Source: Candidatus Omnitrophota bacterium
Lineage (GTDB): Bacteria > Omnitrophota > Gorgyraeia > Zapsychrales > Zapsychraceae
DNA: 64,000 nucleotides
NCBI GenBank assembly: GCA_050250375.1
Contig: JBFWOS010000001.1
Span: 1,086,361-1,150,360, forward strand
Direction of reading: 5' to 3'
Program-made: the position numbers and the translations under genes
Notes under the pieces: generated by a model
The model's input: only the letters and a program-made list of their open reading frames with translations
Told to the model about the DNA's origin: nothing
Database searches by the model: none
Shown here: one piece after another, positions 3,435-44,988 of the stretch
Numbering within the stretch: the stretch's first letter is position 1
How the letters are laid out: each line of letters starts with the position of its first letter

Positions 3435-3541
3435 TATTTGAAGTTCTTCGAATTATTGTGTTTTCATCCTGAATTAAACTTTGGAAAGTTTATCACGGCT
3501 GGGCAAGTCAGGTCAAGATTAAATAATACAGATTAGTTTAT

Positions 3542-3898: not shown

Positions 3899-3904
3899 AT
3901 TGTT

Positions 3905-4231
3905 TTATTTATGAAAATATTTTTGCAGACGGGCTTTGGAACCACGCATCACATCTTCAAATGTGACACCGATACGGTAATTGGATGATCCTGAAATTGC
4001 CCTGGCCCAAAGGACCCGGCCGATAACCAATACGGGCAAATCTTCTTCGCCTAAATCAAGTTCTATCGGAATTCGTTTATTAACAGGAATGCGGCGGGGA
4101 GAAACAAATCCGAGGCCTCCCTTGCTGATATCAATCACATTGCTGGAATCAAAAATACCGCCTTTTTTTCCATCAACGGGCACTTCACAACTCAATCTTT
4201 TATTTCTGCGTTTATTTAATTCTTTGTTCAT
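3905..4231 (-). CDS. PilZ domain protein (c-di-GMP receptor), tandem paralog
   Basis: KRRNKRLSCEV (RxxxR) and DISKGGLGF (DxSxGG). 108 aa. Confidence 0.6.
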   Translation of the reverse strand: MNKELNKRRNKRLSCEVPVDGKKGGIFDSSNVIDISKGGLGFVSPRRIPVNKRIPIELDLGEEDLPVLVIGRVLWARAISGSSNYRIGVTFEDVMRGSKARLQKYFHK

Positions 4232-5681: not shown

Positions 5682-7058
5682 CTATTCCTTAAAAAAACTT
5701 TGGGTGATCACGTCCGCTATGTTTCCTGCAATCAGTTTAATGCCGTCGGTTGATAAATGGCCGAAATCTCCGGCAAAATTGTCTACAAAATATTGTTCAT
5801 ACGGCTTCTGACTCAGGGCGTCTTTGAAAATCTTCTCATTGTCCACAAACACAACATTTCTATCCTTACCTAACATTTTAACCAACGGATCTAATTTTCG
5901 CATGGGGTATTGGACACTGACCAACTTGATCCCCCGGCTCAATACAATTTCCTTAATCTGCCTGTAATTATCAACCGTTAACGGAGATAAATATTGGGCA
6001 TCCAGATCAGCGGCTTTAATAAACTTCTCTTCAGCCTCCTTGACTTTCCCTTGAATCAAGTAATAACTCGCCCACATCTTGCTAAAAATATAACTGTCAG
6101 GAAATTTCTCATCAGCCTTTTGTAAGACCTGCTCAAGCTTATCATATTCTTTCTGTTTAAAATAAATCTGAGCCAGCTTTTCATATGCTTCGTCCGAGTC
6201 AGGAATGTTCTGTATCATGGCTAAAACCGTTTCTTCCGCCAAGGAATATTTCATCGCGTAAAAATACCGCATGCTTAACAGACTATACGCTTCTTCATTC
6301 TTTGGATCAAGCTCTATGGCTCTTTTTAAATAGCTGACAGCCAAATCCATTTCCGCATAATACGAATAAATCCCCCCAAGGTTGGAATAAATCGGTGAAT
6401 AATCCGGATCAATCTTCATTGCTTTCTTTAATACCAATTCGGCCTCGTCAAATTCCAATCTATCCATATAATCATAGACCTGTTCCATCAATTTTGTCAT
6501 ACGAGGATCCTCATGAGACAAAACGTAATCCTCTTCCTTTTCAGAATTCCTGGATTGAGCATGTAGGCGAATATGATTCAACAACCGATATACCTTCAAC
6601 CGTTTCACGGCCAAAATAAACCAATTATCTTTATCATTTCCAAGCACTTCTTCCGTAACGTCGTTTCTTCCGTCATTAATTCCAATCATGGTGATAACCA
6701 TGTCCGGGGCGTATTTGCTCAGATTCTCTTTTAAATTAGAAAGGATAATACCGCTGGTTACACCCAGAATACCTTCATTAATGACCCGGAATTTGATTCC
6801 TAAATTTTTTTGATTTAATATTTTTTCCAGCTGATAGGGATACGAATGTTCCAGGGTTCCAGAAAACGTTGTCGATTCGCCGATACATAATATCCGGTAA
6901 GCTCCGGTTTCTTTCAAAGCCTGATGATTTTTATAAGATTGATAATATTTAAATACAAAGCCAGACAGTCGCATTCCGGTTTCGACAAAAATAACGGTCA
7001 TAATGAATCCAACCGCGATTAGAATAATTTTCTGCTTACCCGTTGTCTTGTCTTTCAT
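5682..7058 (-). CDS. TM-anchored SGNH/GDSL hydrolase with inserted TPR-repeat domain (paralog 1 of 4)
   Basis: N-terminal TM helix. Block I is ILCIGESTTFSG (catalytic Ser), block III is MIGINDG. A ~200-aa TPR region follows (repeated AEEAY...LG...Y pattern). Block V is FAGDFGHLS (DxxH). Confidence 0.7.
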   Translation of the reverse strand: MKDKTTGKQKIILIAVGFIMTVIFVETGMRLSGFVFKYYQSYKNHQALKETGAYRILCIGESTTFSGTLEHSYPYQLEKILNQKNLGIKFRVINEGILGVTSGIILSNLKENLSKYAPDMVITMIGINDGRNDVTEEVLGNDKDNWFILAVKRLKVYRLLNHIRLHAQSRNSEKEEDYVLSHEDPRMTKLMEQVYDYMDRLEFDEAELVLKKAMKIDPDYSPIYSNLGGIYSYYAEMDLAVSYLKRAIELDPKNEEAYSLLSMRYFYAMKYSLAEETVLAMIQNIPDSDEAYEKLAQIYFKQKEYDKLEQVLQKADEKFPDSYIFSKMWASYYLIQGKVKEAEEKFIKAADLDAQYLSPLTVDNYRQIKEIVLSRGIKLVSVQYPMRKLDPLVKMLGKDRNVVFVDNEKIFKDALSQKPYEQYFVDNFAGDFGHLSTDGIKLIAGNIADVITQSFFKE

Positions 7059-7068
7059 GAACTTTCTG

Positions 7069-7770
7069 TCATTTCTTCCTGAAGATTAATTGAATAAAAT
7101 CAGCCATCGCTGTTCCCACCACTTTAATATTCGCCCCCGTTGGTACTCCTCCTTCACGGACAAAATGCTCAATCGGCACTTCTTTAATCCTGGCTTTTTT
7201 AACACGGGCATTAATAAACACATGTGTATAAAACGCTCCGGCGTGCGAGTCAATCCCTTCCGTTTCTAAGAACTGTTTATGGAACAATTTAAACCCGCAA
7301 TTGATATCTTTAGACTTAATCCCGAAGGCCGCTCCAACGCAAAAGGTATATAATTTCCCTAACATAATCCGGTGGACCGGATCGACCCGCTTTGAACGGT
7401 AACCGGCTATAATGTCATAGTCTCTGGTATAATTGAGCATCGGATCGATGGAGTTAATCTTAATCTGGCCGTCAGAATCCATAAGCAGAATCCATTCGTG
7501 CCTGGATCGCTCAATCCCCGAAATTAACGCCTTTCCATACCCTTTATTTACCGGAAGAGTGACCACCGTAACATGGTTATAAGATTTCCCCAAATCTTTT
7601 AAGATATCAGGTGAGCGGTCAGTACTGCCATCGTCTACCAGGATTATTTCATACCCGGTAATATTCTTGTGGGAATGAAGATGATTGTATACTTCTTCAA
7701 CGGTCTTTCGGATATTGGATTCTTCATTATAAACCGGAAGAATGACAGATAGGGTCACTTGATCGCTCAT
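7069..7770 (-). CDS. Glycosyltransferase family 2, polyprenol-phosphate sugar synthase-like (DPM1/ArnC-like)
   Basis: LSVILPVYNEESNI ... EIILVDDGSTDRS (DxD-type GT-A fold). 233 aa, soluble. 4-nt overlap with the downstream radical SAM gene. Confidence 0.75.
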   Translation of the reverse strand: MSDQVTLSVILPVYNEESNIRKTVEEVYNHLHSHKNITGYEIILVDDGSTDRSPDILKDLGKSYNHVTVVTLPVNKGYGKALISGIERSRHEWILLMDSDGQIKINSIDPMLNYTRDYDIIAGYRSKRVDPVHRIMLGKLYTFCVGAAFGIKSKDINCGFKLFHKQFLETEGIDSHAGAFYTHVFINARVKKARIKEVPIEHFVREGGVPTGANIKVVGTAMADFIQLIFRKK

Positions 7771-9065
7771 ATCAACGTAATTAGACGCCCGACAAATAAC
7801 TTGAAACTTCGTATGAGCGTGAGCATGTTTGAACTGAGCAAATAGGCAGGCCTCAGATAGTACTTTAAATAAGTTTTACGGATATGCCGGTCGATGTATT
7901 TGTTAAAATTGATGTCAGGCATATAAACATTGCTTTTAAGATAAGGGTATACTTTATGAAATGATACAAAATTTGTGTTTAGTTCCTTGGCGAATTGAAA
8001 GGTTTCATTCCGGTCACTGTCCGATTCTTCCTTCAATCCGAACATATAAAAAGCCAGGGTCTTGATACCGGCCTGTTTGCACATCCTGACCCCTTCTTTG
8101 ATCTTCTCCGGAGAAATATGTTTATTTGTCAGATCCAGGTATTTCTTTGTGCCGCTTTCAACGCCAACATGGATCAATTGACAGCCGGCCGCTTTCATCT
8201 TCTTTAATATTTCCGGATCTACCGAATCAGCCCGGGTCTGGCAGCACCATTTGAAATCGTACTTCTTTTCGATGAGAAAATCACACATCCTTGAAACCTG
8301 CGCCTTATAATGTAGAAATTCAAGATCCATAAAATAAGCTGTTTTGACCCCGTGCTCCTCAACAGCAACCTGAATCTCTTTACAAATCTGTTCGCTGGTT
8401 TTGACCCGCAGTTTCGGTTCGTACATGATCTTGTTGCAGAATTTGCAGCCAAAATTACAGCCGCGGCCCAATTCGAACAGGACAAAATCTTTTCCGAGGA
8501 TTTCATAAAAGTATTTCCTGATATCCAGCAGATGAAACGCCGGAACGGGCAGATCGGTCAACTCAAAATTTCCCCGGTCCGGATTAGATTTGAAATGACC
8601 GTTTTCCCGATAACTGATGCCGGTGATTTGGGAAAGTTCCTGATCCTGACAGATATCATCCACAATGTATTCAGGCCCCCCGCGGATCACGGCCATAGCC
8701 CCGGTATTTTCTAATACCGTCACAGGGTCAACCGTCCCATGATAACCCATGATATAAAAATTATCCGTGTGTTCTTTAATTACTTTTACCGTTTCATAAA
8801 AAGCCGTCATATTAATATTGGGACATTGCCAGCGGTCAAGCGATGAGGATGTAATAAATATTTTATCGTAACCCATTAAATGGGTTTTTAATTTATGAGG
8901 TTTGATTCGCAAAGCATGCGCGTCGAGGATGCGGACAAAATGCCCTCTTTGCTCCAGGATCGCGGCACAATTAGCCAGGCACAGAGGCGGCCAGATACGG
9001 TTATACGTATGCTCTCCCTTTCCATAAGGGTACGGCCAGTAAGGTTTAATCAATAATATTTTCAT
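7767..9065 (-). CDS. B12-binding domain radical SAM protein
   Basis: N-terminal cobalamin-binding-like domain, then FELGRGCNFGCKFCNK (CxxxCxxC). Confidence 0.8.
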   Translation of the reverse strand: MKILLIKPYWPYPYGKGEHTYNRIWPPLCLANCAAILEQRGHFVRILDAHALRIKPHKLKTHLMGYDKIFITSSSLDRWQCPNINMTAFYETVKVIKEHTDNFYIMGYHGTVDPVTVLENTGAMAVIRGGPEYIVDDICQDQELSQITGISYRENGHFKSNPDRGNFELTDLPVPAFHLLDIRKYFYEILGKDFVLFELGRGCNFGCKFCNKIMYEPKLRVKTSEQICKEIQVAVEEHGVKTAYFMDLEFLHYKAQVSRMCDFLIEKKYDFKWCCQTRADSVDPEILKKMKAAGCQLIHVGVESGTKKYLDLTNKHISPEKIKEGVRMCKQAGIKTLAFYMFGLKEESDSDRNETFQFAKELNTNFVSFHKVYPYLKSNVYMPDINFNKYIDRHIRKTYLKYYLRPAYLLSSNMLTLIRSFKLFVGRLITLI

Positions 9066-9068
9066 AGT

Positions 9069-10286
9069 CTAAAAAAACTGTATGATTTTTCTTAACGTTT
9101 CAATAAACAACCGAACTTCTTCTTCCGTATTATACGCATAGAGGGATACTCTCAAACTCGGTGTCAGCCGGTGTCTTTTATACCCCGCGTGACAGCAGTG
9201 CACGCCGCTGCGGGTCATGATGTTTTCCGTCTGGTCCAGAATAATGGACAATTCACCTGAATCCATTCCTTCAACATAAAAATTGATAATCCCGGACCGT
9301 AAATCAGGATCCTGCGGTCCGATTATCCGGACTTTTGGCCAGCTTTTAATCGTGTCGGTCATCAGCCGGTTGAGCATGGATACATGCGCTCTGATTTCTT
9401 TCAGGCCTGTCTTCGTCAAATATTCGATGGCCGCCGTAACGCCTGACGCCCCCGCGTAATTCTGCAGACCAGCTTCAAACCGGTCGGGGACTTTCGATAA
9501 AACAAAAGAATTGGCGCTAACATCATCAACGGTTTCTCCTCCGATATACAACGGCTCCAGATTATCCAGATGTTTCTTCTTAGCATAAAGACATCCCATT
9601 CCGCTGGGGCCAAGCATCTTATGAAACGAAAAAGCGAAAAAGTCAGCATCAAGTTTTTGTACATCAATTGAATGATGGGCGATACTCTGCGCGCCGTCAA
9701 CCAAAACCAATGCGCCGTGTTCATGGGACAACCGGATTATATCCTCAATCGGAAACGTGTACCCCGTAATATGGCTCGTGTGCACGATGCTGACCAATTT
9801 AGCCCCTTCTTTTAAAAGAGCAACAAACCTTTCTTGATCGAATTTCAAATCCTCGGTCAGGCCAAAAATTCTTAAAACGGTCTCTTTCTTTCTTCCAATC
9901 ATCTGCCAGGGTAAAAAATTCGAATTGTGTTCCAGGCTGCTTGTCAGAACCACTTCACCCTTCAAAAAATTTATGCCGTTCGCGACAAGATTAATGGATT
10001 CCGTCGCATTCTTGGTGAAAACGATTTCATCCGCGCTCTTGGCGTTAATAAATCTCTGAACAGACTTCTTGGCCTGTTCATAGGCGGACGTTGTTTTCAG
10101 TCCGAATTTATGAACCGACCGTTTATGACAGCTGGGATGAACCATATAATACTCGTTCATGGCCTCCACCACCTGTCTCGGTCGTAACGTCACACAGGCA
10201 TTATCAAAATAAACCGGCTTTTTCCCTTTACTCACGCTTTCTAACGAAGGGAAATCTTTTCTCAATTGATTGCAATCAAAACCCAT
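9069..10286 (-). CDS. Cysteine desulfurase (class V aminotransferase, SufS/CsdA-like)
   Basis: PLP lysine motif SFHKMLGPSGMG. Active-site Cys region RSGVHCCHAG. Overall SufS-like length of 405 aa. Confidence 0.8.
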   Translation of the reverse strand: MGFDCNQLRKDFPSLESVSKGKKPVYFDNACVTLRPRQVVEAMNEYYMVHPSCHKRSVHKFGLKTTSAYEQAKKSVQRFINAKSADEIVFTKNATESINLVANGINFLKGEVVLTSSLEHNSNFLPWQMIGRKKETVLRIFGLTEDLKFDQERFVALLKEGAKLVSIVHTSHITGYTFPIEDIIRLSHEHGALVLVDGAQSIAHHSIDVQKLDADFFAFSFHKMLGPSGMGCLYAKKKHLDNLEPLYIGGETVDDVSANSFVLSKVPDRFEAGLQNYAGASGVTAAIEYLTKTGLKEIRAHVSMLNRLMTDTIKSWPKVRIIGPQDPDLRSGIINFYVEGMDSGELSIILDQTENIMTRSGVHCCHAGYKRHRLTPSLRVSLYAYNTEEEVRLFIETLRKIIQFF

Positions 10287-10290
10287 GATC

Positions 10291-10656
10291 TTACTTAAAC
10301 CATAATATGACCGGAAAAATTACGCTAATCCAGATCATCAAAAATATTGTTAGATTGAAATTTCTGTATATCATCCCGGAGAATTTCGGAGAAACGGAAA
10401 AAAACCTCCCGGCGATCTTGCACCGGTATAAAGGAATAAACGGCTTCTTATGAATAAGGTTCAGATTCGCCCGGATAACGACCATAAGAAAATTTTTCGT
10501 CCGTCTGGCCGTTGGAACGACAAAACTGAATAAATAAAAAAAGGGCAGCACAACAGCCGACGCAACCAGCATCGGCACAGACAGTGTCAGCAAACCGAAC
10601 AAATTCGGCCCCTTATCTTCCATACTATAACCGCAACAACCTGTTTCACCAATCAT
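10291..10656 (-). CDS. Hypothetical small membrane protein (two predicted TM segments)
   Basis: ORF fills the gap between the cysteine desulfurase and the PP-loop gene. Hydrophobic stretches LFGLLTLSVPMLVASAVVLPFFYLF and LTIFLMIWISVIFPVILWF. No recognisable family. Confidence 0.3.
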   Translation of the reverse strand: MIGETGCCGYSMEDKGPNLFGLLTLSVPMLVASAVVLPFFYLFSFVVPTARRTKNFLMVVIRANLNLIHKKPFIPLYRCKIAGRFFSVSPKFSGMIYRNFNLTIFLMIWISVIFPVILWFK

Positions 10657-10660
10657 AAGA

Positions 10661-11515
10661 TTACCTTTCGATCAGTTTATACAATCTGCTTTCCGGGCCT
10701 TTTTCCACAAACTGATCCAGCTCCCGGGTAAAAGTCGCGATCTTGTCCTTATAAAAGACAAGAGTCGCTTGCTGATATTCATCATAAGTATGATCCGCCA
10801 GGTACAACCATTTTACAAAAATATTAAAAAGAATAAACTGAAAACAGCGCGGCTGCATTTTACGGTCCAACGCGGTGCCTTTGACATTTTCAGACGGCAT
10901 CAGACCGAGTTCATAAAGCTTCCGCCCGGTCGTTTGTGTCTGCGTCGCTGTATTACAAGAAGTCTTGTTGTCCTGCGTAAAAAATCGCTCCAATCTGAGA
11001 CGGTCAGTAAATTCCAGATCCTGCGGGCCATCATATTTAAAGACCGGATTGGTGTAAGTAATCCCAAAACGGGCGTACATGTCCCCGTATTCATTAATGA
11101 TTGTAGCCATCTGGTCGGGAAAAAGGTGCATCCCCTGATTCGCGCCGTCACAGACATTGGGTATTTGGTTCTCGAGGCAAAAGATCGCGGTACGCACATG
11201 CATGGCCAGCTTGCATAATCCGCAAATAGTCAGCAGAAAAAAGCCATGTTTTTTAATATTGCTCAAATATCGTTCGTAAAACACATACCGTGTCAGTTTC
11301 TCTACCTTGATGATATGAAACTCAAATTTATTCTGACCGTATTTATCCTGCAGTTTTTTGACATTAATCATCGGATTGGTGACCGAAGAAAACGCAAACC
11401 GGTCGTAGGTGATCAAATGGATCTTGTCGTATTTTTCGGCCATTAACGCGGCCGTTAATGTCGAATCTGTCCCTCCGGAAAATAATGTCGCTGTTTCATT
11501 TCGTCTCATAAACAA
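10661..11515 (-). CDS. PP-loop ATP pyrophosphatase superfamily protein with CxxC...C cluster (TtcA/TtuA-like thiolation or LarE/QueC-like)
   Basis: N-terminal SGGTDST (SGGxDS PP-loop) within the first 20 aa. CGLC at ~100 and an isolated Cys at ~123. 284 aa. Confidence 0.65.
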   Translation of the reverse strand: MFMRRNETATLFSGGTDSTLTAALMAEKYDKIHLITYDRFAFSSVTNPMINVKKLQDKYGQNKFEFHIIKVEKLTRYVFYERYLSNIKKHGFFLLTICGLCKLAMHVRTAIFCLENQIPNVCDGANQGMHLFPDQMATIINEYGDMYARFGITYTNPVFKYDGPQDLEFTDRLRLERFFTQDNKTSCNTATQTQTTGRKLYELGLMPSENVKGTALDRKMQPRCFQFILFNIFVKWLYLADHTYDEYQQATLVFYKDKIATFTRELDQFVEKGPESRLYKLIER

Positions 11516-11696
11516 CCTGCTCCTGTTTTGCTTTCTCCAGCTCTTTCAGAATGAACTTCAAAATAACGATATACGAAAGGTAAATGAACTGGGTGATCCA
11601 CCCCAGAATTTCAATGTAGACACACCTCATCTTCCAGGGCATGATCAGTCCAAAACCGCATAAGAGTATCGCCAAAATTTTCCTGATCGTCTTCAT
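11496..11696 (-). CDS. Hypothetical small membrane protein
   Basis: 66-aa ORF with one long hydrophobic stretch, wedged between the PP-loop gene and a radical SAM gene. Overlaps the PP-loop start by 20 nt. Confidence 0.3.
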   Translation of the reverse strand: MKTIRKILAILLCGFGLIMPWKMRCVYIEILGWITQFIYLSYIVILKFILKELEKAKQEQVVYETK

Positions 11697-11701
11697 TTAT
11701 T

Positions 11702-13195
11702 TTATCCGCTGGCGGCCATAAAAGATTCTTTCTCCTGTTTACCCGTCTGTCCCTCCGTTACAGACTGCAGGATATACGCTTGTATGATCAATCCCAAAGC
11801 GTTCATTAAATTTTGGGCGTATTTCCACTTATCCGGATACTTTCTAAATCCCCGCCTGATACGGCTCCATTTGAAATAAAAACGCCGCTGTGCCTTTAAA
11901 ATCATCCGGTTTAAATCCTCAGGCGACACTTCCGCTTGTGAACGTTTAACCGAATAATAAGCGATATCTTTAATCTGTTCAAAGATTTTCCGGTTGTCGG
12001 CCGATTCCTTAAAACCGGATTCGTAAATTTTATTAACGTCGTCATAATCAGTCGCTTTAAAAAACGAAGCCACATCTAATTCAGAGTTGACGGCAAAATC
12101 GATGGTCCGGTTAATCTCTTCTTCCGATTCGGATAAATGCCCAAGCATAAAATACCCGCCGGTAATGATCCCTCTCTCTGAAGTCTTGGCAATCATCTCG
12201 TTCACCTGTTGGATATTCAGGTTCTTTCTAAAGGCCTTCTGCAATCGGGAAGATGCGGACTCGATCCCGTAAACTAATTTATAGGTTCCAGCCTGTTTCA
12301 ATAAATCCAGCAGTTCTTCCGTCATAATATCTGCCCTGACGCCATGAGGAAAGGCAAGACTGATGTTTAATCCGGCCTCAATGATCAACCGGCTGATCTT
12401 TTTAGCCCGTTCATTGTCATAGTTAAAAACGGCATCATAAATATGAAATTCTTTCGCCTCGAATCGGGTATGGAGATATTTTATTTCTTCGACCACATGT
12501 TCAGGGGAGCGGGCGAGAAATTTCTTTCCATAAGTTTCACGGCAAAACGTGCACTTAAAAGGACACCCCCGGGATGTAAGGATAGGAATATAAAAATCTT
12601 CCTTAAGCGCGCCGTTCCAATTGGAATACCGGGCATACTCTTTCACGTCGATTAGATCCCAGGCGAACGGGATTATATTGAACGCATCCAAATTTTCCGG
12701 ATATTCACGCGGGGATGTAGTCACAGTCCGATCGTCGTTCTTGTAGACCAATCCCGAAATATTTTGAAAGCCTCCCTTTTGGTTTCCCAAAACACCGATT
12801 AATTCTCCCACGGTCAGTTCAGGCTCCCCAACTACCACAAAATCAATATGCCGATCCTCACAAAGATATTGACTGGAAAATGTGGCCAACTGTCCAAACA
12901 CAACAACTTTAACCCAGGCCTTCCAACTCTTGGATAAAGCCGCCAGCCGATGGACCAGACCAGCCTCCCACGACAACGCGTAAAACACGACCACATCCGG
13001 ATCAAAATTCTCTATTTCCTTCCTGACATCATTCTCGGCCATATCGCCTATGCCGGTGTCCGTCACCTTGAACTCATACTTGTCCGGGAATCTTTCCTGG
13101 ATATGAGAAACGACATACAGAATCTCCAGAGGAGGGATCGGACCGCCCGTACCGACCGTAATATGCGTTCTAATTAAATGGATCTTCTTAATCAA
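11702..13195 (-). CDS. B12-binding domain radical SAM protein
   Basis: LTSRGCPFKCTFCRETYG motif. N-terminal Rossmann-like B12-binding region. Confidence 0.8.
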   Translation of the reverse strand: MIKKIHLIRTHITVGTGGPIPPLEILYVVSHIQERFPDKYEFKVTDTGIGDMAENDVRKEIENFDPDVVVFYALSWEAGLVHRLAALSKSWKAWVKVVVFGQLATFSSQYLCEDRHIDFVVVGEPELTVGELIGVLGNQKGGFQNISGLVYKNDDRTVTTSPREYPENLDAFNIIPFAWDLIDVKEYARYSNWNGALKEDFYIPILTSRGCPFKCTFCRETYGKKFLARSPEHVVEEIKYLHTRFEAKEFHIYDAVFNYDNERAKKISRLIIEAGLNISLAFPHGVRADIMTEELLDLLKQAGTYKLVYGIESASSRLQKAFRKNLNIQQVNEMIAKTSERGIITGGYFMLGHLSESEEEINRTIDFAVNSELDVASFFKATDYDDVNKIYESGFKESADNRKIFEQIKDIAYYSVKRSQAEVSPEDLNRMILKAQRRFYFKWSRIRRGFRKYPDKWKYAQNLMNALGLIIQAYILQSVTEGQTGKQEKESFMAASG

Positions 13196-13207: not shown

Positions 13208-14671
13208 TCACATCTGAAAAACATTTTCTTTTTTCAATACAGCATAAATAGTCTCGGACATAATCTTATGCCCTTCATTCGTGCAGTGGTCGTCATCGAA
13301 AAAATATTTGCTCTTTGGTTCCAGCCCTTTAAAAGCCGCCTGGTGATCAATCACCGGCAGATGATACTCATCGGCAATCTTCCGGAGAACCTTATTGGCC
13401 ATCATATAGTCTGTCGGGTATAACTGGACAAACAACCGGATATTTTTTTTCTGACATGTCACCGCAACGCTCTTTAAATCATCATAAATCCATTGTTCAA
13501 TTCCAGAGTCCCATTTTTGTTTGTCTTTATAAATATTCAGGTTATTTGTAAAATTTTTACTCAGGGACAGTAACGGATTTTCCTCCTTCATAGTCATCAA
13601 TTTCTGATAGATATCTCGAGAGTCGTAATAACTTTGCAATTCATATAACTTATTCAACTCTGAAAAAAAATAGTCGGCATCAGGATCAACCGCAATCGCC
13701 CGAAGATAATGATCAATCGCCTTGTTATAGTGCAATTTTTTCTTGTGCCAATTCGCCAACTCAAAATTATAATAGGCCAGACCATCATACACCTGTTCCG
13801 ACTGTTGATTCATTTGATACGTTTTTTGTAACAAATCCTCAGCTTTATCAATATTATCCGTCTTATAATAAAAATGAACCAGAGCCAACGCCCCTTCAAT
13901 CGGACTGACCTGTTTGTTTTTCAAAGTTTCCTCTAATAACTCAATTCCCTTTTGCGATTCTCCTGTGTTAAACAAATGCCAGGCTTGTTCAAGATAATTA
14001 TATTCTTGAGGGGTCTTGATCCCTTCCCAATGCTCAAGATGCCCCATGTAATTATCATGCCTGGTAAAAATACTCCGCGTTGGTTTGAGATTCCTGAGCA
14101 TTAATTTCTTTTTCTGAAATTCTATGCCGTCACTTTGATCAACAGCCCAACTGATCCTGATAAACCGGGCCATTTTGACAACACGCAGTTCAAAAAACCA
14201 ATTCTTTAAGGATGACCATTTACTTTTTTTTGCGTATGCCTCATACGCCCAAGGATTAAAACGATTGGTAGCCCCCGCCAGAAGTAAGACGACTTTAGGA
14301 TGATATTTCGAAATCATGGCCGGAATCCGCTGAACCAGTTCATGAGTGTTCAGTTCGCAAATGCCCTGATTGTGTATCTTTACATGGTTGATCTGATTTC
14401 GTTGAAACAATTCTCTTAAATGCGAGGTATAGGTTTCGTGGGCTTCAACCATTCCTCCATGCGTGAATGAATCCCCAACGGCGATAATATCGGTAACATG
14501 CCCCACGCTCTCCGCGGCTGACTCCGTTTCATCCGTACGGTATTCTTCATCGTATTCATAATAGATTTTACCCACCACCCGAAGTCCAACTTCAAGGATA
14601 GTAAGGAAAAAAATAAAGCTGAACACACTCAATAGGATTTTTACGAATAATGGCGTTTTAATTTTCGACAT
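13208..14671 (-). CDS. TM-anchored SGNH/GDSL hydrolase with inserted TPR domain (paralog 2)
   Basis: N-terminal TM. IIAVGDSFTHGG (GDS block I), LLAGATNRF (block III), TPR-like middle region, DDDHCTNEGH (DxxH block V). Confidence 0.65.
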   Translation of the reverse strand: MSKIKTPLFVKILLSVFSFIFFLTILEVGLRVVGKIYYEYDEEYRTDETESAAESVGHVTDIIAVGDSFTHGGMVEAHETYTSHLRELFQRNQINHVKIHNQGICELNTHELVQRIPAMISKYHPKVVLLLAGATNRFNPWAYEAYAKKSKWSSLKNWFFELRVVKMARFIRISWAVDQSDGIEFQKKKLMLRNLKPTRSIFTRHDNYMGHLEHWEGIKTPQEYNYLEQAWHLFNTGESQKGIELLEETLKNKQVSPIEGALALVHFYYKTDNIDKAEDLLQKTYQMNQQSEQVYDGLAYYNFELANWHKKKLHYNKAIDHYLRAIAVDPDADYFFSELNKLYELQSYYDSRDIYQKLMTMKEENPLLSLSKNFTNNLNIYKDKQKWDSGIEQWIYDDLKSVAVTCQKKNIRLFVQLYPTDYMMANKVLRKIADEYHLPVIDHQAAFKGLEPKSKYFFDDDHCTNEGHKIMSETIYAVLKKENVFQM

Positions 14672-14695
14672 AAAAGCCTTTCCTTAGATTTTATT

Positions 14696-14908
14696 TTAAA
14701 ACAAGGCGTAAATGGCCGGTAAAATAGACGAATTCCCAGCCAAATTTACAAAAATACTCAAAAAGGCCAATACAAACAACAAAGGCAAAAGCCACCATTT
14801 TTTATGTTCCTTGATCATTAAAAAAAGCTCAATCAATAAATCTTTGTTTGAACTGATTTTTGATTTTTTTCGTTTTGGTTTTAGGTCGTTTTTCTTTTCT
14901 TCGTTCAT
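14696..14908 (-). CDS. DUF5989-like small membrane protein
   Basis: 70 aa. ...KEHKKWWLLPLLFVLAFLSIFVNLAGNSSILPAIYALF resembles the small KKxWLxP...APFIYTLF family often found next to polysaccharide-modifying genes. Family assignment is from memory. Confidence 0.4.
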   Translation of the reverse strand: MNEEKKNDLKPKRKKSKISSNKDLLIELFLMIKEHKKWWLLPLLFVLAFLSIFVNLAGNSSILPAIYALF

Positions 14909-14936
14909 AATTTCCTGGTAAAGCCTAGTGTATTAT

Positions 14937-16220
14937 TCAACTTATTTTATTGAAGAATTTATTTTCAATCAAAACCTTATATATTGATTGGCTGATAATG
15001 GCATGCCCCAATTTATTCGGATGGATGGTGTCATGCTCAGGATCAAGAAACAAGTACTCATTACTTTTTTGAAAATAAGCGGAAAACTCATCAACAATAT
15101 CCACCAAAACTAACTGTTCTTCTCCGGCAATTTCCTGCATTATAATATTGTATTGTTTAGCCAGGGCTTTGCATTCATAAAGCTCCATGAGAACCGTCTT
15201 TTTAAAATAATTTTCGGCATCCGTTTTTTTGTTTAATTTCAAACTCAACTGTCCCAGATAATAATAAGCCCGGGCAGAATTCGGGTTTAATTCCAAAGCC
15301 GTTTTAAGACCCGCCAAAGCCCCCTCATAATCCTGTAGATTCGTTCTGCGGACAACTTGGTTGATTTTTTCATCAGCTTGCTTTTGGATTTCAGGCGAAA
15401 CATCTTCCGCTGACGGTAAATTCACCGGCATTTTTAACAGGACAACAGTGATGCCATTTTCTTTGGCCGTCTTGATTAAAGACTTCAGATTGTTCCGGTA
15501 ATCCAGGGCCGAAACTCTGCGTTGATTAACATATTCCCCGCTTCCGCGCTGACCAAAATACTGCAGTGACAATGCTTGCGATTGAAGGATAAATTTCTTA
15601 TAAGCAGTAAAAAATTTACTTCGATCTAAAAAATTTTCAATCGCGACCAATACGTCATTTTTAAGGCCTAACTCTTTATCACTCTTCCCATGGTTACGGT
15701 AAAAGCGGTATTTATCGACATCATTAATCACATATGCCACCGTAATTATATCCGGCGCAAGCGGCAGGATTTTTTCTTTAAAAAACCGTAGCCCCTGAAA
15801 TGAGCTGTAACCAATCTGTCCGGCATTAATGACCTCAATATTTGTACGGGTAAAAGTCTTACGCAGTGATTCTTCAAGCTGTTTGGCATAAACTTCATTT
15901 TGATCTACGCCCCAGCCGAACGTCGGTGATGCCCCCAGACAAACAATACGCACCTGTCCGTTCTTTTTTCCGAACGGACGATCACGCAGACCGAGTGCAT
16001 TTGTTCTTACCCGGGCTCCTTCAAAGACTATGTCCAGATGCGGTTTTTGTATCCAGAATAATCCGGTATCCTGCTGCAAAACGCTCCGGATCCTATCAAG
16101 ACGAGTTGGAGTCCCGGCCAGCCAATAGCCCGCCCCTTCGCCTAAGCATAAAAGGACCAGGAAAAAAATCAGCCCAATGAATGGGCCTCGACATTTATAC
16201 CATATTGAATTGTGTGTCAT
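14937..16220 (-). CDS. TM-anchored SGNH/GDSL hydrolase with inserted TPR domain (paralog 3)
   Basis: RIVCLGASPTFGWG (block I, Ser present), VAYVINDV (block III), TPR-like region (ARAYYYLGQLSLKLNK...), DPEHDTIHPNKLGH (block V). Confidence 0.6.
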   Translation of the reverse strand: MTHNSIWYKCRGPFIGLIFFLVLLCLGEGAGYWLAGTPTRLDRIRSVLQQDTGLFWIQKPHLDIVFEGARVRTNALGLRDRPFGKKNGQVRIVCLGASPTFGWGVDQNEVYAKQLEESLRKTFTRTNIEVINAGQIGYSSFQGLRFFKEKILPLAPDIITVAYVINDVDKYRFYRNHGKSDKELGLKNDVLVAIENFLDRSKFFTAYKKFILQSQALSLQYFGQRGSGEYVNQRRVSALDYRNNLKSLIKTAKENGITVVLLKMPVNLPSAEDVSPEIQKQADEKINQVVRRTNLQDYEGALAGLKTALELNPNSARAYYYLGQLSLKLNKKTDAENYFKKTVLMELYECKALAKQYNIIMQEIAGEEQLVLVDIVDEFSAYFQKSNEYLFLDPEHDTIHPNKLGHAIISQSIYKVLIENKFFNKIS

Positions 16221-16223
16221 AAG

Positions 16224-17627
16224 CTATTTAATATACAGCATGCCTTTCGATAACCGATAAAACACATCCAGATTATTAATATAAAATGAAAAATATTTGT
16301 ACATGTGGCTGATAAAAAATTTGGGATTCAAAAATATCTTTTTATAAAAAGCGGCCCGGATTTCGGATAATTTCTTGGAATCCAGAGCGCTGAAATTCTT
16401 CCGGGGGATATCATAATGAAACATTTCCATAATTTCAGTATCATCCACCTGAAGTTTAAGCTGTTCATAACTCGTTGAACCCGGGTATGGACTGAAAAAA
16501 TGGATCTGCATAATATCAGGTTTCAATTCTTTGACAAGGGTAAAGGTTTCCTGAATTTCTTGTTCTGTTTCCGTCGGACTTCCAATGATCAGCAGCGCAT
16601 GGCTGGCGATCCCCAATTCTTTTGTGTAGTCAAAAACCTTTTTGGCCTGGCTGTTCCAGTCAATCTTTTTAAATGATTTAGTCAGCGATTGTACAATCCG
16701 GCTGGAACCTGATTCAACGCCGAACCGCAACAATATGCACCCGGCTTCTTTCATCGTCTTTAAAAGTTCATAATCCACGTTGTCAATGCGTGAGTGCGCC
16801 AACCATTTAATATCCACCGAACGGCGTTTGAGTTCAGCACATAAATTCTGGACATGCTGTCTGGATATCGTCAACAGATCGTCATCAAAACTGATCATAT
16901 TAATTCCTTGAGCCTGAAGCTGTTCAATTTCGTCCACGATGTTTTTAGCCGACCGCAACCGGGCTTTCGCTCCGTAACTTTCACGGGTCACCGGAGAACA
17001 AAAGGTGCATTTATACGGACACCCCCGGGAAGAAAGGATGTGCCCCCAATGAAGTTTCTTGGAAAGCTTGACCGGGTAAATAAACCGGTAATCCTTAATT
17101 TCCTCCTCGGTGTATTCTGGGAACGGAAGACTATCGAGGTCCGTCACTAAAAAATTCGGCTGTTTGCCTTCTTTAAACTTTTTATAACGCTCTTTTTCCT
17201 CCGAATAAGTACTTTCCCCATGTTTAATCCGTTGAATCAAATTAAACACTTCAAATTCCGCTTCGCCGGACAGATAAATATCCAAATCCGACGGAATAAA
17301 CTTTGTTTCAATAGAACCGACCGCAATCGACAATACGTTAATTTTGTTTTTTAGTTCCGAATTAAACCATCGGAATTCCTTTAAAGTAGAAACATTTACT
17401 GAATAGACAACAATATCCGGCTTCCAATGACCTGCTCTAACCAACAACTCGGCATTCTCAATACGGCCGGTCATGGCATCAAACAATCTGACTTCTGCAA
17501 AATTTGATTTTACAATTAACGCCTGAATATACTTTAATGTATATGGAGGGGAACAGTGATTGGGATGTTTAATCCGCTTGCTGTTCGGAAGATTTAGTCG
17601 GACTAAGGCAACTTTGATATCAGACAC
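16224..17627 (-). CDS. B12-binding domain radical SAM protein
   Basis: LSSRGCPYKCTFCSPVTRESYG. Closely related to the 11702 and 28067 paralogs. Confidence 0.8.
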   Translation of the reverse strand: MSDIKVALVRLNLPNSKRIKHPNHCSPPYTLKYIQALIVKSNFAEVRLFDAMTGRIENAELLVRAGHWKPDIVVYSVNVSTLKEFRWFNSELKNKINVLSIAVGSIETKFIPSDLDIYLSGEAEFEVFNLIQRIKHGESTYSEEKERYKKFKEGKQPNFLVTDLDSLPFPEYTEEEIKDYRFIYPVKLSKKLHWGHILSSRGCPYKCTFCSPVTRESYGAKARLRSAKNIVDEIEQLQAQGINMISFDDDLLTISRQHVQNLCAELKRRSVDIKWLAHSRIDNVDYELLKTMKEAGCILLRFGVESGSSRIVQSLTKSFKKIDWNSQAKKVFDYTKELGIASHALLIIGSPTETEQEIQETFTLVKELKPDIMQIHFFSPYPGSTSYEQLKLQVDDTEIMEMFHYDIPRKNFSALDSKKLSEIRAAFYKKIFLNPKFFISHMYKYFSFYINNLDVFYRLSKGMLYIK

Positions 17628-21485: not shown

Positions 21486-22886
21486 TTAGAGTTTATTTAA
21501 GATCGTTTCTGCGATATTACGGGCTAATATTCCGTTTCCTTTTGGGGTGCAATGCCCGAAATCCCCGGCAAAATTATCAATAAAGATAGCATCATAACCC
21601 TCTTTTTGGACAGCGGCATTAAACACCATTTCATTATCGACAAAAATTATGTTGTTGTCGTGACCAACCAGAGTCTTTAATACGGCGACCTCCCGCCTAG
21701 GATACTGAACCAGAACTAATTTAAGATGGTTTTTGAAGACTTTTTCTTTAAGGATTTTATAATTATGTTTTGTAACAGGATTAAAGGAGCCCGCTTTCGC
21801 CTGCTTAGATTTTATCAAATACTCATTGGCCAACCGTAGATTATCTTGTGTCTCATAAAAGAGTTTCAAGGCTTTGTAAGAATCATGGGTTTCTTGCCTT
21901 TTGGCGCTGTTGGTAAATAACATTTCCGCTTTCTGGGTATCCCCGTCTTTTAAATAGCTCCACCCCAAAGACATGTCAATGTCATTATTGTCGTTGTCTA
22001 ATGATTTAGCCTGAACCAGTACATTAATCGCATCTTTCCACTGTTGATGAATGATATATATCTGGCCTAAGGTAATATACAAGTTCGAATTATTCGGATC
22101 CTTGCTTATCCCTTCTTTCATGACGATTTCAGATTCATTCAGTTTTCCGGCTAAGGCTAAGCATAGACCTAAATTAACATACGTATCTGCATCCCCCGGA
22201 AAATCTTTGAGAGTCTGCCGAAACAATTTCTCCGCATCATTAAATTTTCCTTCAGCAATCATCCCCCAGCCTGTTTCGAAATGAGGGCCATAACCTTCGG
22301 ATACATCCTCAATAATTCTCCGGTAAATAAATTCCAGTTCCTTGGATAAATTCCGGCCGCGGTTCTTGTTTATTTTATTTTGAACGGACAAATACAATAA
22401 ATGGAATAATTTATAAACCCTTAAATCTTTCGCCGCACCTTTGAAATACACTCCGATGTCATTCTTAAATTCAACGCGATCATCGGCAAAATCATTTATC
22501 CCCATCATAACGATAACCATGTCCGGTTTATAACTATTAAGGTACTCGTCCAATTTTGTCAGGATATAAGATGTTGTAATTCCCGGAATACCTTTGTTAA
22601 TCGTTCGGAATTGGATATCCGGTCTTTTCTCATTCAGAATTTTTTCGAGCTGTTTCGGATAGGAAAATTCTCCCCCCAAAGCTGTTGACGATTCCCCCAA
22701 ACATAAAATTTTATATGTACCCCCCTCACTCAGATTTTTCTTATTCTGAAGATCCTGGGAAAAAATGTATACAACTCCTCCCAAACGTAAACCGACCTCA
22801 AGCAGCACGAATAAAAATATCAGACTGCCGACAATCAACAGAAATTTTTGTCTCATGTCTTTACTCCCGTCCCCCGCGGATGACAA
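21486..22886 (-). CDS. TM-anchored SGNH/GDSL hydrolase with inserted TPR domain (paralog 4)
   Basis: YKILCLGESSTALGG, MMGINDF, TPR-like region, FAGDFGHCT (DxxH). Closest paralog of 5682-7058. Confidence 0.7.
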   Translation of the reverse strand: MSSAGDGSKDMRQKFLLIVGSLIFLFVLLEVGLRLGGVVYIFSQDLQNKKNLSEGGTYKILCLGESSTALGGEFSYPKQLEKILNEKRPDIQFRTINKGIPGITTSYILTKLDEYLNSYKPDMVIVMMGINDFADDRVEFKNDIGVYFKGAAKDLRVYKLFHLLYLSVQNKINKNRGRNLSKELEFIYRRIIEDVSEGYGPHFETGWGMIAEGKFNDAEKLFRQTLKDFPGDADTYVNLGLCLALAGKLNESEIVMKEGISKDPNNSNLYITLGQIYIIHQQWKDAINVLVQAKSLDNDNNDIDMSLGWSYLKDGDTQKAEMLFTNSAKRQETHDSYKALKLFYETQDNLRLANEYLIKSKQAKAGSFNPVTKHNYKILKEKVFKNHLKLVLVQYPRREVAVLKTLVGHDNNIIFVDNEMVFNAAVQKEGYDAIFIDNFAGDFGHCTPKGNGILARNIAETILNKL

Positions 22887-24209: not shown

Positions 24210-25961
24210 TTACCAGCCGCTGGTGGGATTATAAAAAGAAAAATCGTTGAGCAGCCGCATATCCTGCCAAAAACTGTATATCAAAAACAATCCCACAATT
24301 ATTTTCAGGATTCTTTTAAACATTAACGGTTGCTGTTCAACATAAATCATCATGACAATCAACAACGGTGGAACTATCTGGGTCAAATGGTTCGTCTGTT
24401 TCCAGTCTACAATTGAAAAGAGGATTGCTCCGGAAAAAATCCAGGCGGCAAACAAAGAAACATATCGACCGGGAAATTTTATCAGACAAAAAATAAGAGT
24501 AAATACGGTTATGGGAAGATACGGGAATTCAAATTTAAATTCCAGCCATAGCCGTAAGAACCCGGGATAATCTTCAGCAAACAGGGTATTATGATGGAAG
24601 AGCCGATCAAACAGATGGACTTTCACATGCGATAGAATAAACGCATGATAATCAATCACCATCCCGTATACCCAGAACAGAACCGACCCCAGGGCAAATC
24701 CGATCGGTATAACTGATCGTTCCTTTAAACTTTTCAAAAACCCTTTCTCTTTCCTCTCTTTACGCGATTGGTACACTTGAATCAAGAACAGGGGCAAGAC
24801 CAAAACAACAATCTTCTGGTTGATCAAACCGGACAGGACTCCGGGAATATATTTCAGAAACTTCAGAGACCATTTTGAATTTTCCCATATCTCCGGACGG
24901 AAATATTGATAGGCCAGCACGACCATTAAACAATTCGTAAACGCCACATGCTCTGATAGACAGGATCTGACAAAGATGGCCGGGGTAAAAATATAGGCAT
25001 ATCCCCCGACAATTCCCAACAACCTGGACTGGGTTAAACCGGTGATCAACTTATACAAAATAAAGAAAACCAGAAGGCTCGCAAAAATATTGGATGCTCT
25101 CGCCGGGAATACATTCGGCCGGGAGAAAAAATGATTTTGGTCTTGCCAATTGATATATTCGATCAATCCCGTTTTTGTATAGGAATAATCAACCAGGTCA
25201 TTCCCGGACAGCTTCTTCAGCGTAAAATATTGCCCGTTAAAATTTCTTAAGTGAACTGTTTCACCCATAAATTCTGCCGTTGCTTCTTCCCCGGGAGACA
25301 ACTTAAGAACCTTTTCAGTCAGCACGGCTGAATCATAAAAATATTTATAATCATCCGTTTTATCCAGAAGAAATATGCTAAACGCGTTAAATAAATTTGT
25401 CATCGGCGGATGGGCAAAATAAAACGCCGACCCGATAAAATCATCACTAGTCAAATACGGTTTTAACTCATGAATCAAGCCATAGGCTGTCCCCTGATGC
25501 TCACCATCGAGGTCCAGTTTTTCCGGGATCGTCTTCATTCCCACAAAAATGCAGCTAAATATACAAACCAACGATAACCATAGGATGAGCGTTTCCTTGT
25601 AATCATAGCGAAACGTCTGAAAAACTTCCGCAGGGCGAGTTAGGATGATGCCGAGATTAACGATCATGCCCGTCAGCAGAAGAAAATGAACCGGCTTAGG
25701 GTTAATTCCGGCCGCCAAAAATCCGATTAGAATTATTGTCAGCACAGAGAAAGAAAAGACAAAAATAAAAAACACCAGAAAAACGCTGTCTTTGACATGT
25801 TTCTTTATCAGTCCGATCCAGGCCAGTCCGGGGACAATGTATATCACGGCGGTAACAACCAACGCTGATAAGAAATCACCCGCCTCTGTGTATAAAATCA
25901 AAATATTACTAAACAGGAACAAGTTACATAACAAGGCAATATGCCGGTTTCTGATAAACAT
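24210..25961 (-). CDS. Polytopic integral membrane protein (>=12 TM), possible GT-C-type glycosyltransferase or polymerase/ligase
   Basis: 583 aa, hydrophobic throughout, no soluble domain recognisable. Sits in the glycan locus. Confidence 0.35.
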   Translation of the reverse strand: MFIRNRHIALLCNLFLFSNILILYTEAGDFLSALVVTAVIYIVPGLAWIGLIKKHVKDSVFLVFFIFVFSFSVLTIILIGFLAAGINPKPVHFLLLTGMIVNLGIILTRPAEVFQTFRYDYKETLILWLSLVCIFSCIFVGMKTIPEKLDLDGEHQGTAYGLIHELKPYLTSDDFIGSAFYFAHPPMTNLFNAFSIFLLDKTDDYKYFYDSAVLTEKVLKLSPGEEATAEFMGETVHLRNFNGQYFTLKKLSGNDLVDYSYTKTGLIEYINWQDQNHFFSRPNVFPARASNIFASLLVFFILYKLITGLTQSRLLGIVGGYAYIFTPAIFVRSCLSEHVAFTNCLMVVLAYQYFRPEIWENSKWSLKFLKYIPGVLSGLINQKIVVLVLPLFLIQVYQSRKERKEKGFLKSLKERSVIPIGFALGSVLFWVYGMVIDYHAFILSHVKVHLFDRLFHHNTLFAEDYPGFLRLWLEFKFEFPYLPITVFTLIFCLIKFPGRYVSLFAAWIFSGAILFSIVDWKQTNHLTQIVPPLLIVMMIYVEQQPLMFKRILKIIVGLFLIYSFWQDMRLLNDFSFYNPTSGW

Positions 25962-44956: not shown

Positions 44957-44988
44957 CTTTTGTTTTTTCCAGGCCGATTTTTATAAAT

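Follow-up and report, generated by a model that had tools for sequence, protein, structure and literature searches.

Split SGNH proteins with inserted TPR domains accompany a DUF5989 microprotein in a probable glycoconjugate cluster of Omnitrophota and may take part in a periplasmic acyl relay

We analysed a stretch of 64,000 nucleotides (nt) from a Candidatus Omnitrophota bacterium (GenBank assembly GCA_050250375.1, contig JBFWOS010000001.1, positions 1,086,361 to 1,150,360 of the forward strand), to which we refer as the window. It encodes four SGNH-type proteins, named here after the first coordinate of their genes (5682, 13208, 14937 and 21486), in which tetratricopeptide repeats (TPR) are inserted into the catalytic domain. 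Genes 13208 and 14937 lie on either side of a gene for a microprotein of the Pfam family DUF5989. We find that the TPR-split SGNH architecture is common in metagenomes, not rare, and that it recurs together with DUF5989 and with B12-binding radical S-adenosylmethionine (rSAM) enzymes. The reading that we tentatively favour, with somewhat less than even confidence, is a periplasmic acyl relay onto an envelope glycoconjugate in which the SGNH proteins would serve as serine acyl-transfer enzymes anchored in the inner membrane.

The 13208 protein (type A; 13208-14671, minus strand; 487 amino acids (aa)) is annotated as a hypothetical protein (locus tag AB7S78_08675). Split Pfam matches, AlphaFold (AF2), Foldseek and an orthologue alignment divide it into a transmembrane (TM) helix (aa 8-37), an N-terminal SGNH part (aa 59-140), a helical/TPR insert (aa ~141-408) and a C-terminal SGNH part (aa 409-482). 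It carries Ser68 in GDS, Asn101/Gly103, GATN at 133-136, Asp459, His462 and Cys463. The helical/TPR lobe (aa 141-408; 13448-14251, minus strand) is placed between block III/β3 and β4 by the AF2 secondary structure; in a profile search of the PDB, the 13208 family profile matches consensus TPR proteins at profile positions ~196-375. The 14937 protein (type B; 14937-16220, minus strand; 427 aa) is described by AF2, Foldseek and alignment as a TM helix (aa 6-34), a four-strand β unit (aa 48-72), a helical insert (aa 165-227) and a TPR-like insert (aa 276-367), with Ser98 in GAS, Asp397 and His400 as catalytic residues. NCBI places the start of this gene 47 codons downstream, which yields a product of 380 aa from which the TM helix is lost; the 427-aa form is supported by the homologues and by the invariant E28, D51 and W56 upstream of the NCBI start.

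The remaining two proteins are of type C and were delineated with Pfam and by alignment. The 5682 protein (5682-7058, minus strand; 458 aa; Pfam TPR and Lipase_GDSL_2) has a TM helix, Ser62 in GES, Asp431 and His434, and its gene is flanked by genes for glycosyltransferases (GT) of families GT9 and GT2. The 21486 protein (21486-22886, minus strand; 466 aa) has a TM helix, Ser66 in GES, a TPR insert, Asp442, His445 and Cys446, and its gene adjoins an rSAM-SPASM gene and a gene for a 448-aa membrane protein. As read from sequence and alignment, the insert of both type C proteins appears to lie between block III/β3 and β4.

We built a hidden Markov model (HMM) for each half of the SGNH domain, one covering blocks I-III on the N-terminal side and the other running from β4 to block V; in the window these match exactly four open reading frames (ORFs), namely 5682, 13208, 14937 and 21486. 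The Pfam family Lipase_GDSL_2 covers the N-terminal part of all four, Lipase_GDSL (profile ~136-207) matches the extreme C-terminus of 13208 and 14937, and TPR families match between the SGNH halves, above the gathering cut-offs in 5682, 21486 and 14937 and just below in 13208. NCBIfam gave weak matches of the SGNH proteins to the Leptospira LA_2486/LA_2490 SGNH families and nothing stronger. In the alignment the four share block I G-x-S, block II N-x-G and block V D-x-x-H, so that the catalytic Ser, Asp and His are present throughout, as a sequence-only reading of this DNA had supposed. That reading had also given all four paralogs one build with a GxND block III. The N-terminal TM helix and the complete catalytic set do apply to all of them, but 14937 carries its TPR between β4 and β5, and block III is GxN or GxND across the family, with GATN in 13208. 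Moreover, 5682 and 21486 share 35% identity along the whole chain whereas 13208 and 14937 can be aligned over just 66 C-terminal residues. Judged by their sequences, the four proteins represent three distant, old subfamilies.

AF2 models cover 13208 (from a 24-sequence alignment) and 14937 (44 sequences). The 13208 model (pLDDT 86.2, pTM 0.78) contains the strands β1 (60-66), β2 (97-101), β3 (127-131), β4 (412-417) and β5 (440-442), a final helix, and helices only from 134 to 408. Foldseek matches it to TesA (6lfc_D, TM-score 0.78), AlAXEase (0.72) and 3rjt (0.66), these scores being normalised to the esterase targets of ~200 aa, and also to CTPR structures. Because the alignments span the insert, the N- and C-terminal halves are predicted to form one SGNH fold. 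In the 14937 model (pLDDT 91.3, pTM 0.88) β1-β3 fall within 90-162, followed by a helical insert of ~70 aa, β4 (258-263), a TPR-like segment of ~95 aa (276-367), β5 (371-374) and His400; here Foldseek finds full SGNH esterases at target-normalised TM-scores of 0.74-0.79. Both models thus predict a three-layer α/β/α SGNH fold with five parallel strands that is built jointly by the two halves, and the earlier proposal of one SGNH fold with an inserted TPR lobe is borne out by AF2 and Foldseek for these two proteins. Since the TPR follows β3 in 13208 and β4 in 14937, TPR-type inserts occupy two different loops of the fold.

A profile was searched exhaustively against 1.84 billion cluster representatives and returned 4,574 matches at E <= 1e-30, a total that is inflated by TPR-only proteins. 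In 157 of the 166 best relatives both SGNH halves are found, separated by 145-604 aa (median 265). Together they form a large SGNH subfamily, so far unnamed, whose catalytic fold accommodates a TPR solenoid of variable length at either of two sites. The catalytic residues are largely kept among 160 relatives (Ser in 155, His in 158, Asp in 132 and the block II Gly in 157). Database names for the relatives are limited to 'hypothetical', 'GDSL-type esterase/lipase' and 'lysophospholipase L1-like'. A 2022 review of SGNH proteins describes a carbohydrate-binding module (CBM) inserted in the catalytic domain of NmApe1 and never mentions TPR (PMC9487903), and our literature search found no paper on an SGNH protein with an inserted TPR. 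An insertion inside the fold had been called unusual on the basis of the window; given the NmApe1 precedent and the frequency of the TPR-split form among the top relatives, this qualification is too strong.

A single N-terminal hydrophobic segment is present in 153 of the 160 relatives, and in 138 of these 153 the N-side is the more positively charged, which predicts an N-in, domain-out topology. The SGNH domain probably lies outside the cytoplasm, as had been suggested from the anchor. Among the 13208 orthologues the TM helix (0.61) is as well conserved as the catalytic core (0.63-0.65); by analogy with the modelled contacts between DltD and DltX, this would fit specific packing against another TM helix. 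In 117 of 160 relatives the outer end of the helix bears a conserved E-x-[GAS]-x-R motif (LEVGLR at aa 26-31 of 13208), and 144 of 160 have a cysteine directly after the catalytic His (D-x-x-H-C), for example Cys463 in 13208 and Cys446 in 21486. Cys463 and Cys105, the latter in the block II loop, are invariant among the 13208 orthologues. A disulfide between the two was considered as a sign of a periplasmic site and rejected, since they do not co-vary in the 160 relatives (both present in 87, only Cys463 in 57 and only Cys105 in 11).

The second element of the module is the microprotein of 70 aa encoded at 14696-14908 (minus strand), 28 nt after 14937 and 24 nt before 13208, with Shine-Dalgarno-like sequences at both the microprotein gene and 13208. 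That the two SGNH genes bracket a protein of this length had been noted before; it is a true DUF5989 member (PF19451; 54.3 bits against a cut-off of 27, E = 1.4e-14, residues 23-70) and the only ORF of the window that the DUF5989 HMM matches. It consists of a basic N-terminal tail, the motif KKWWLLP, one TM segment and the C-terminus SILPAIYALF-COOH, whose last six codons (14699-14716, minus strand) specify a candidate acyl-shuttle motif around Tyr67, by comparison with DltX and PatA. In an alignment of 34 sequences L63, P64, A65, I66, Y67, A68 and F70 are invariant. Conservation extends to the family as a whole: 200 of 202 distinct members end in x-[IVLM]-Y-x-x-F-COOH, of which AIYALF accounts for 161, and in 172 of the 202 the end lies 33 residues after WW. 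The strict form FXYXXF (F-[IV]-Y-[TS]-x-F) is found in 23 of the 202, mostly linked to carbamoyltransferases. On average 6.4 Lys/Arg residues occur in the 25 residues before the TM segment and the last 14 residues are essentially uncharged; in the window protein an uncharged tail of 12 residues follows its one hydrophobic segment. By the charge rule, both this tail and the SGNH active site are predicted to be extracytoplasmic. A literature search on 'DUF5989' returned no papers.

The two elements are linked in many genomes. A DUF5989-anchored scan of metagenomes gave 80 loci, 41 of which measure at least 6 kb; these 41 include 31 with an SGNH gene (21 with TPR), 27 with a PP-loop gene, 25 with a B12-rSAM gene and 12 with a carbamoyltransferase gene. 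The hexapeptide comes in two flavours that differ in company: AIYALF accompanies SGNH, B12-rSAM and PP-loop genes, whereas FIY[TS]xF is found with carbamoyltransferase and SxtJ. Within 2.5 kb of the A-type (AIYALF-like; n = 77) we count SGNH 65 times, B12-rSAM 51, PP-loop 38 and carbamoyltransferase 8 times, against 10, 3, 3 and 20 times, respectively, for the F-type (strict FXYXXF; n = 27). At loci L090 and L100-L102 both tail types stand side by side. An SGNH gene lies directly upstream of the A-type in 56 of the 77 loci (32 of 13208 type and 24 of 14937 type), and in 21 of the 56 the two genes overlap by 4 nt, which indicates translational coupling of SGNH and DUF5989. The arrangement seen in the window, with one SGNH type on either side of DUF5989, is rarer.

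A scan of species-representative genomes with the alignment of 13208 orthologues yielded 22 loci with long matches (L008-L028 and L030), with Omnitrophota, Elusimicrobia, Myxococcota and metagenome-assembled genomes (MAGs) labelled Rickettsiales as hosts. Labelling with the window HMMs reveals a recurrent order of SGNH-TPR, DUF5989, B12-rSAM, a membrane ORF of ~60 aa and a PP-loop protein of ~280 aa. The PP-loop gene is followed either by a 120-aa Cys-rich membrane protein and a class-V pyridoxal phosphate (PLP) enzyme, or by a second SGNH gene of 14937 type. Within 3 kb of the 13208 relatives (the 22 loci and L003, n = 23) DUF5989 occurs in at least 13, B12-rSAM in at least 16 and the PP-loop gene in at least 11 cases; these counts are lower bounds because many contigs are short. 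The same neighbourhood is seen in another Omnitrophota MAG (43% identity, with the whole cluster syntenic and one extra SGNH-TPR gene), and also in an unrelated JGI metagenome, in Elusimicrobia and in an ENA assembly.

The sequence-only reading had placed a B12-rSAM gene beside every paralog, and had proposed rSAM-SGNH pairs whose co-occurrence could be counted. Such genes do adjoin 13208 (11702-13195) and 14937 (16224-17627), but not 21486 and 5682. Pairs are too narrow a description, since the conserved unit comprises SGNH, DUF5989, B12-rSAM, the ~60-aa ORF and the PP-loop ATPase, sometimes with the Cys-rich protein and the PLP enzyme. Taken literally, the pairs would imply SGNH domains that face the cytoplasm and act with the neighbouring rSAM enzyme on a lipid- or nucleotide-linked intermediate. 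We regard this as very unlikely: the spacing to the rSAM gene is indeed tight for two paralogs (gaps of 3 and 12 nt) and B12-rSAM lies within 3 kb of 16 of the 23 relatives of 13208, but the charge bias described above predicts the opposite orientation, two of the four paralogs lack an adjoining B12-rSAM gene, and DUF5989 lies between the SGNH and rSAM genes in most loci.

A comparison with known systems gives the combination of microprotein and SGNH enzyme a possible meaning. DltX is a membrane microprotein of 49 aa that ends in FIYNEF (NQAKFIYNEF; PMC13653941); the Tyr of its FXYXXF motif carries D-alanine from DltB, an MBOAT protein, to the catalytic Ser of DltD, an SGNH protein of 425 aa with one N-terminal TM helix (PMC12148441, PMC13653941). 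The module resembles this system in three respects: a single-TM microprotein of ~50-70 aa whose terminal hexapeptide (FIYNEF in DltX, AIYALF here) has a Tyr four residues from the end and is predicted to be extracytoplasmic in our case, an SGNH protein of ~425-490 aa with one N-terminal TM anchor, and an ATP-using activating enzyme encoded nearby (DltA, here the PP-loop ATPase). It differs in that an MBOAT protein (DltB) and a carrier protein (DltC) are missing here, the SGNH protein has a TPR insert, the hosts are diderms instead of Gram-positives, and the first residue of the motif is mostly Ala. In a second system, the peptidoglycan O-acetyltransferase PatA/PatB, the C-terminus of PatA carries FXYXXF (FIYANF in NgPatA) and feeds the SGNH protein PatB (PMC12148441, PMC13653941). 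Again an anchored periplasmic SGNH protein takes an acyl group from the Tyr and passes it to an envelope polymer, as we propose for the module, and FIYANF is identical to AIYALF of the window at four of six residues. In PatA, however, the motif is fused to the MBOAT protein and there is no separate microprotein, and PatB has β-hairpin wings and not TPR. MBOAT/SGNH pathways other than Dlt do without a DltX-like microprotein (PMC12148441, PMC13653941). Overall, only MBOAT and SGNH pairs and AT3-SGNH fusions have been described for the acylation of extracytoplasmic polymers, and both use a Tyr carrier (PMC12148441).

Two further systems resemble the TPR-split SGNH proteins in part. NmApe1 of Neisseria meningitidis likewise holds an accessory binding domain inside the SGNH fold (PMC9487903). 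Its insert is a β-sandwich CBM35 at another position and not a TPR solenoid, and the protein is a soluble periplasmic esterase. In AlgK-AlgX, TPR and SGNH parts cooperate on a polymer in the periplasm as separate proteins, whereas here the TPR is built into the SGNH chain. A TPR protein and an SGNH-type acetyltransferase are reported to make up this complex for alginate modification (PMC9734138).

The proposed relay would proceed as follows. PP-loop ATPases are a class of adenylate-forming enzymes, and the one encoded here might activate a group in the cytoplasm, a task that could fall to a carbamoyltransferase in sister loci; the B12-rSAM and PLP enzymes may modify the group first. The activated group would then be loaded onto the invariant Tyr in the extracytoplasmic AIYALF of DUF5989, giving a putative acyl-tyrosine intermediate, from which the Ser of the adjacent SGNH enzyme would accept it. 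Next the SGNH enzyme would hand the group on to an acceptor hydroxyl, on a glycan or glycolipid that the GT2, GT9 and GT-C enzymes would assemble, while the TPR lobe may hold the acceptor polymer or a partner protein. The several SGNH subfamilies could serve different positions or acceptors. It is the resemblance of the DUF5989 C-terminus to the motif of DltX and PatA that suggests acyl transfer over hydrolysis. In favour of the relay speak the complete SGNH fold and catalytic set, the predicted topology of both proteins, the conserved DUF5989 tail, the linkage to SGNH genes and the conserved TM helix. Further points in its favour are that Omnitrophota, Elusimicrobia, Myxococcota and other MAGs share the module, and that GT-C enzymes acting in the periplasm are encoded in the same operon. 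The GT2, GT9 and several PMT_2/YfhO-type GT-C neighbours make an exported-glycan context fitting. The earlier suggestion of O-acyl editing on an exported glycan or glycoprotein is therefore partly upheld: the gene context agrees with a glycan, but hydrolysis is just one option and the DUF5989 motif points to transfer.

Several observations weigh against the relay. An MBOAT or Acyl_transf_3 (AT3) match was found neither with Pfam in the cluster proteins, searched to E <= 5 for the membrane proteins that lack an assignment, nor in the precomputed Pfam lists of the related loci L001-L007, which leaves the tyrosine-loading step without an identified catalyst. A homology link to DltX was not found either: a Pfam search (E <= 1) of the window DUF5989 gave DUF5989 alone and no DltX family, and the DUF5989 profile matched no relevant PDB chain at E <= 10. 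The first position of the hexapeptide is Ala and not Phe in the window and in most DUF5989 members. PDB profile and Foldseek searches match the SGNH domains to generic esterases, not to DltD or PatB. In the characterised SGNH O-acyltransferases PatB and OatA of S. pneumoniae, the latter an AT3-SGNH enzyme, Ser or Asn stands at the position of the block II Gly, whereas the Gly is kept here (157 of 160 relatives), so the active site looks hydrolase-like. Finally, the topology of both the SGNH and the DUF5989 proteins is predicted by a simple charge rule.

Given these points, a plain esterase function is a serious rival. The SGNH proteins would then be periplasmic de-O-acylases or decarbamoylases that trim an exported glycan or glycoprotein, with the TPR as a substrate clamp and DUF5989 as an unrelated membrane partner or regulator, which corresponds to the editing role suggested in the sequence-only reading. 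The hydrolase-type block II Gly is retained along with Asn in block III, structural searches come closest to acetyl xylan esterases, TesA and other esterases, and the window shows no MBOAT/AT3 donor machinery; furthermore SxtL, the GDSL protein encoded beside sxtK, is annotated as a decarbamoylase (PMC2679770). On the other hand, this explanation leaves the near-absolute conservation of IYxxF in DUF5989, its translational coupling to SGNH and the conserved TM helix of the SGNH proteins without a reason. It would also be odd for one biosynthetic operon to invest in four esterases, drawn from three ancient subfamilies, if removal were their sole purpose. Taken together, we consider the esterase function possible but doubtful, and the periplasmic relay stays our tentative preference.

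The saxitoxin genes of cyanobacteria offer another parallel. Their order is sxtI (a carbamoyltransferase), sxtJ (134 aa), sxtK (54 aa) and sxtL (a GDSL lipase of ~426 aa), with no function assigned to J and K (PMC2679770, PMC2684587); the decarbamoylase annotation of SxtL is a guess (PMC2679770). By its size and position only, SxtK may be a DUF5989 protein. Two vibrios (Vibrio ruber DSM 16370 and Vibrio sp. MEBiC08052), Nitrospirae MAGs and a Halobacteriovorax-like contig carry a comparable set of a carbamoyltransferase, an SxtJ-like segment, DUF5989 and SGNH, and the DUF5989 of these loci is of the F-type. The SxtJ-like calls are based on a weak Pfam SxtJ match of a fusion protein at L005 and, elsewhere, on ORFs of ~121-142 aa that match this fusion. 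By these calls, carbamoyltransferase and SxtJ-like proteins are present in the sister loci L005, L069, L071, L049 and L052. No carbamoyltransferase or SxtJ was found in the window, where by comparison the PP-loop ATPase and the ~60-aa membrane ORF take their place. In the two vibrios (L069, Vibrio sp. MEBiC08052; L071, Vibrio ruber DSM 16370) an SxtJ-like ORF, DUF5989, carbamoyltransferase and SGNH stand in a row at ~7250-10780; this resembles sxtJ/K/I/L outside a toxin cluster, in cultured hosts that are tractable for function tests. A literature search found no paper that links DltX-like shuttles with carbamoyltransferases.

A wider generalisation may be drawn from both types of loci, though we hold it to be doubtful. 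DUF5989, with SxtK as its probable namesake, might be the Tyr acyl/carbamoyl shuttle of a third class of transmembrane acylation that is independent of MBOAT and AT3. It would be loaded either by the PP-loop ATPase and its ~60-aa partner or by a carbamoyltransferase and SxtJ, after which anchored SGNH transferases would decorate glycoconjugates with the TPR selecting the acceptor. What sets the module apart is that a carrier-like microprotein and an anchored SGNH protein occur without an MBOAT or AT3 protein having been found, with a PP-loop ATPase or carbamoyltransferase as the proposed feed. If the resemblance is functional, several poorly known phyla (Omnitrophota, Elusimicrobia and Myxococcota) would possess a new route for adding acyl or carbamoyl groups to the glycans of their envelopes. 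A widespread domain of unknown function would then be explained, and possible roles for SxtJ, SxtK and SxtL would follow.

The other module genes of the window are all on the minus strand. The B12-binding rSAM enzyme directly downstream of 13208 (11702-13195, 12-nt gap) is recognised by Pfam B12-binding and Radical_SAM; its relatives come after DUF5989 in most related loci, as judged from synteny, and it falls below the cut-off of every named NCBIfam family. Directly upstream of 14937 (16224-17627, 3-nt gap) lies a class-B-like rSAM enzyme (Pfam Radical_SAM) with sub-threshold NCBIfam matches to HpnJ and BchE, whose orthologue at L001 shows a faint B12-binding match. NCBIfam assigns none of the window rSAM enzymes, all matches being far under the cut-off. 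These enzymes bear on another explanation, in which the SGNH proteins are lipid-directed (phospholipases, lysophospholipases or lipid acyltransferases) and remodel lipids that the B12-rSAM enzymes methylate or cross-link, so that the product would be a modified glycolipid and not a polymer. Sub-threshold rSAM matches to HpnJ, HpnR and a lipid-biosynthesis B12/rSAM family agree with this, as do the name 'lysophospholipase L1-like esterase' given to relatives by several sources, the structural matches to TesA, and the membrane anchor that holds the active site close to the bilayer. The names are generic, however, and the NCBIfam matches are the far sub-threshold ones just mentioned; moreover TPR lobes mostly bind proteins or polymers, and glycosyltransferases dominate the cluster. 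A lipid-directed role is therefore unlikely, and both this and the cytoplasm-facing explanation fit less well than the esterase function.

The ~60-aa membrane ORF (11496-11696) carries the motif LPW+xRxxYxExLGW, overlaps the start of the PP-loop gene and has homologues at the same position in many loci; it has no Pfam match. We rejected it as a ThiS/MoaD-like sulfur carrier or as a RiPP precursor, because it forms a hydrophobic hairpin and lacks a Gly-Gly end. The PP-loop ATPase-like protein (10661-11515; 284 aa) has SGGTDS and CGLC motifs and weak Pfam matches to DUF7411, QueC and Asn_synthase. Its only relative of solved structure, PDB 9kq6 (E = 1e-7; 5 entries, 70 chains), is described as an asparagine synthetase domain-containing protein. 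Downstream follows a 121-aa membrane protein (10291-10656), for which the alignment of homologues reveals N-terminal G-D-T-G-C-C-G-F and R-C motifs; its homologues are paired with a class-V PLP enzyme in 9 of the 41 DUF5989 loci. As a candidate for SxtJ it gave no Pfam match even at E <= 10. The class-V PLP enzyme (9069-10286) is cysteine-desulfurase-like, with SFHK and HCCHAG motifs, and is identified by Pfam Aminotran_5 (E = 5e-112) and synteny. The presence of a PP-loop enzyme together with a desulfurase hints at thiolation or adenylation chemistry. Candidates for the catalyst of the loading step are the ~60-aa ORF, the 121-aa CCGF protein and SxtJ. The sub-module at 9069-13195, from B12-rSAM through the ~60-aa ORF, the PP-loop protein and the ~120-aa protein to the PLP enzyme, recurs at L001, L003, L006, L007, L072, L077 and others.

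From ~4.4 to 38 kb of the window all genes are tightly packed on the minus strand. This stretch encodes GT9 and GT2 glycosyltransferases, five class-B-type rSAM enzymes and two rSAM-SPASM enzymes, the class-V PLP enzyme, a DegT aminotransferase, a short-chain dehydrogenase/reductase, at least four PMT_2/YfhO-type GT-C membrane glycosyltransferases, one of which has C-terminal TPRs, and several membrane proteins that lack an assignment. These genes suggest a pathway for the assembly and decoration of an envelope glycoconjugate at the outer face of the inner membrane. The PMT_2/YfhO-type GT-C genes start at 29744, 33248, 34825 and 36608 within 29744-38284 (minus strand), the C-terminal TPRs belonging to 29744, and 24210-25961 (minus strand) may be a further one. 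A 542-aa membrane protein that lacks a Pfam match (31633-33261, minus strand) is interleaved with them. AT skew is strongly positive over 24-40 kb.

Elsewhere in the window, 40694-46170 (minus strand) encodes a 1420-aa protein with a Sushi-like repeat match and, after it, one of 393 aa that contains a Peptidase_S74 (endosialidase chaperone) domain. The GC content of this region is 0.49, against ~0.41, and the two proteins might belong to a tail fibre-like or adhesin module that may have been acquired. The region at 738-4231 (minus strand), directly downstream of the cluster, encodes an 898-aa glycan phosphorylase-like protein of family GH94 and two small PilZ-domain proteins. The PilZ-containing trio hints at control by c-di-GMP, and the same trio also comes after the cluster in the related MAG (L001/L002).

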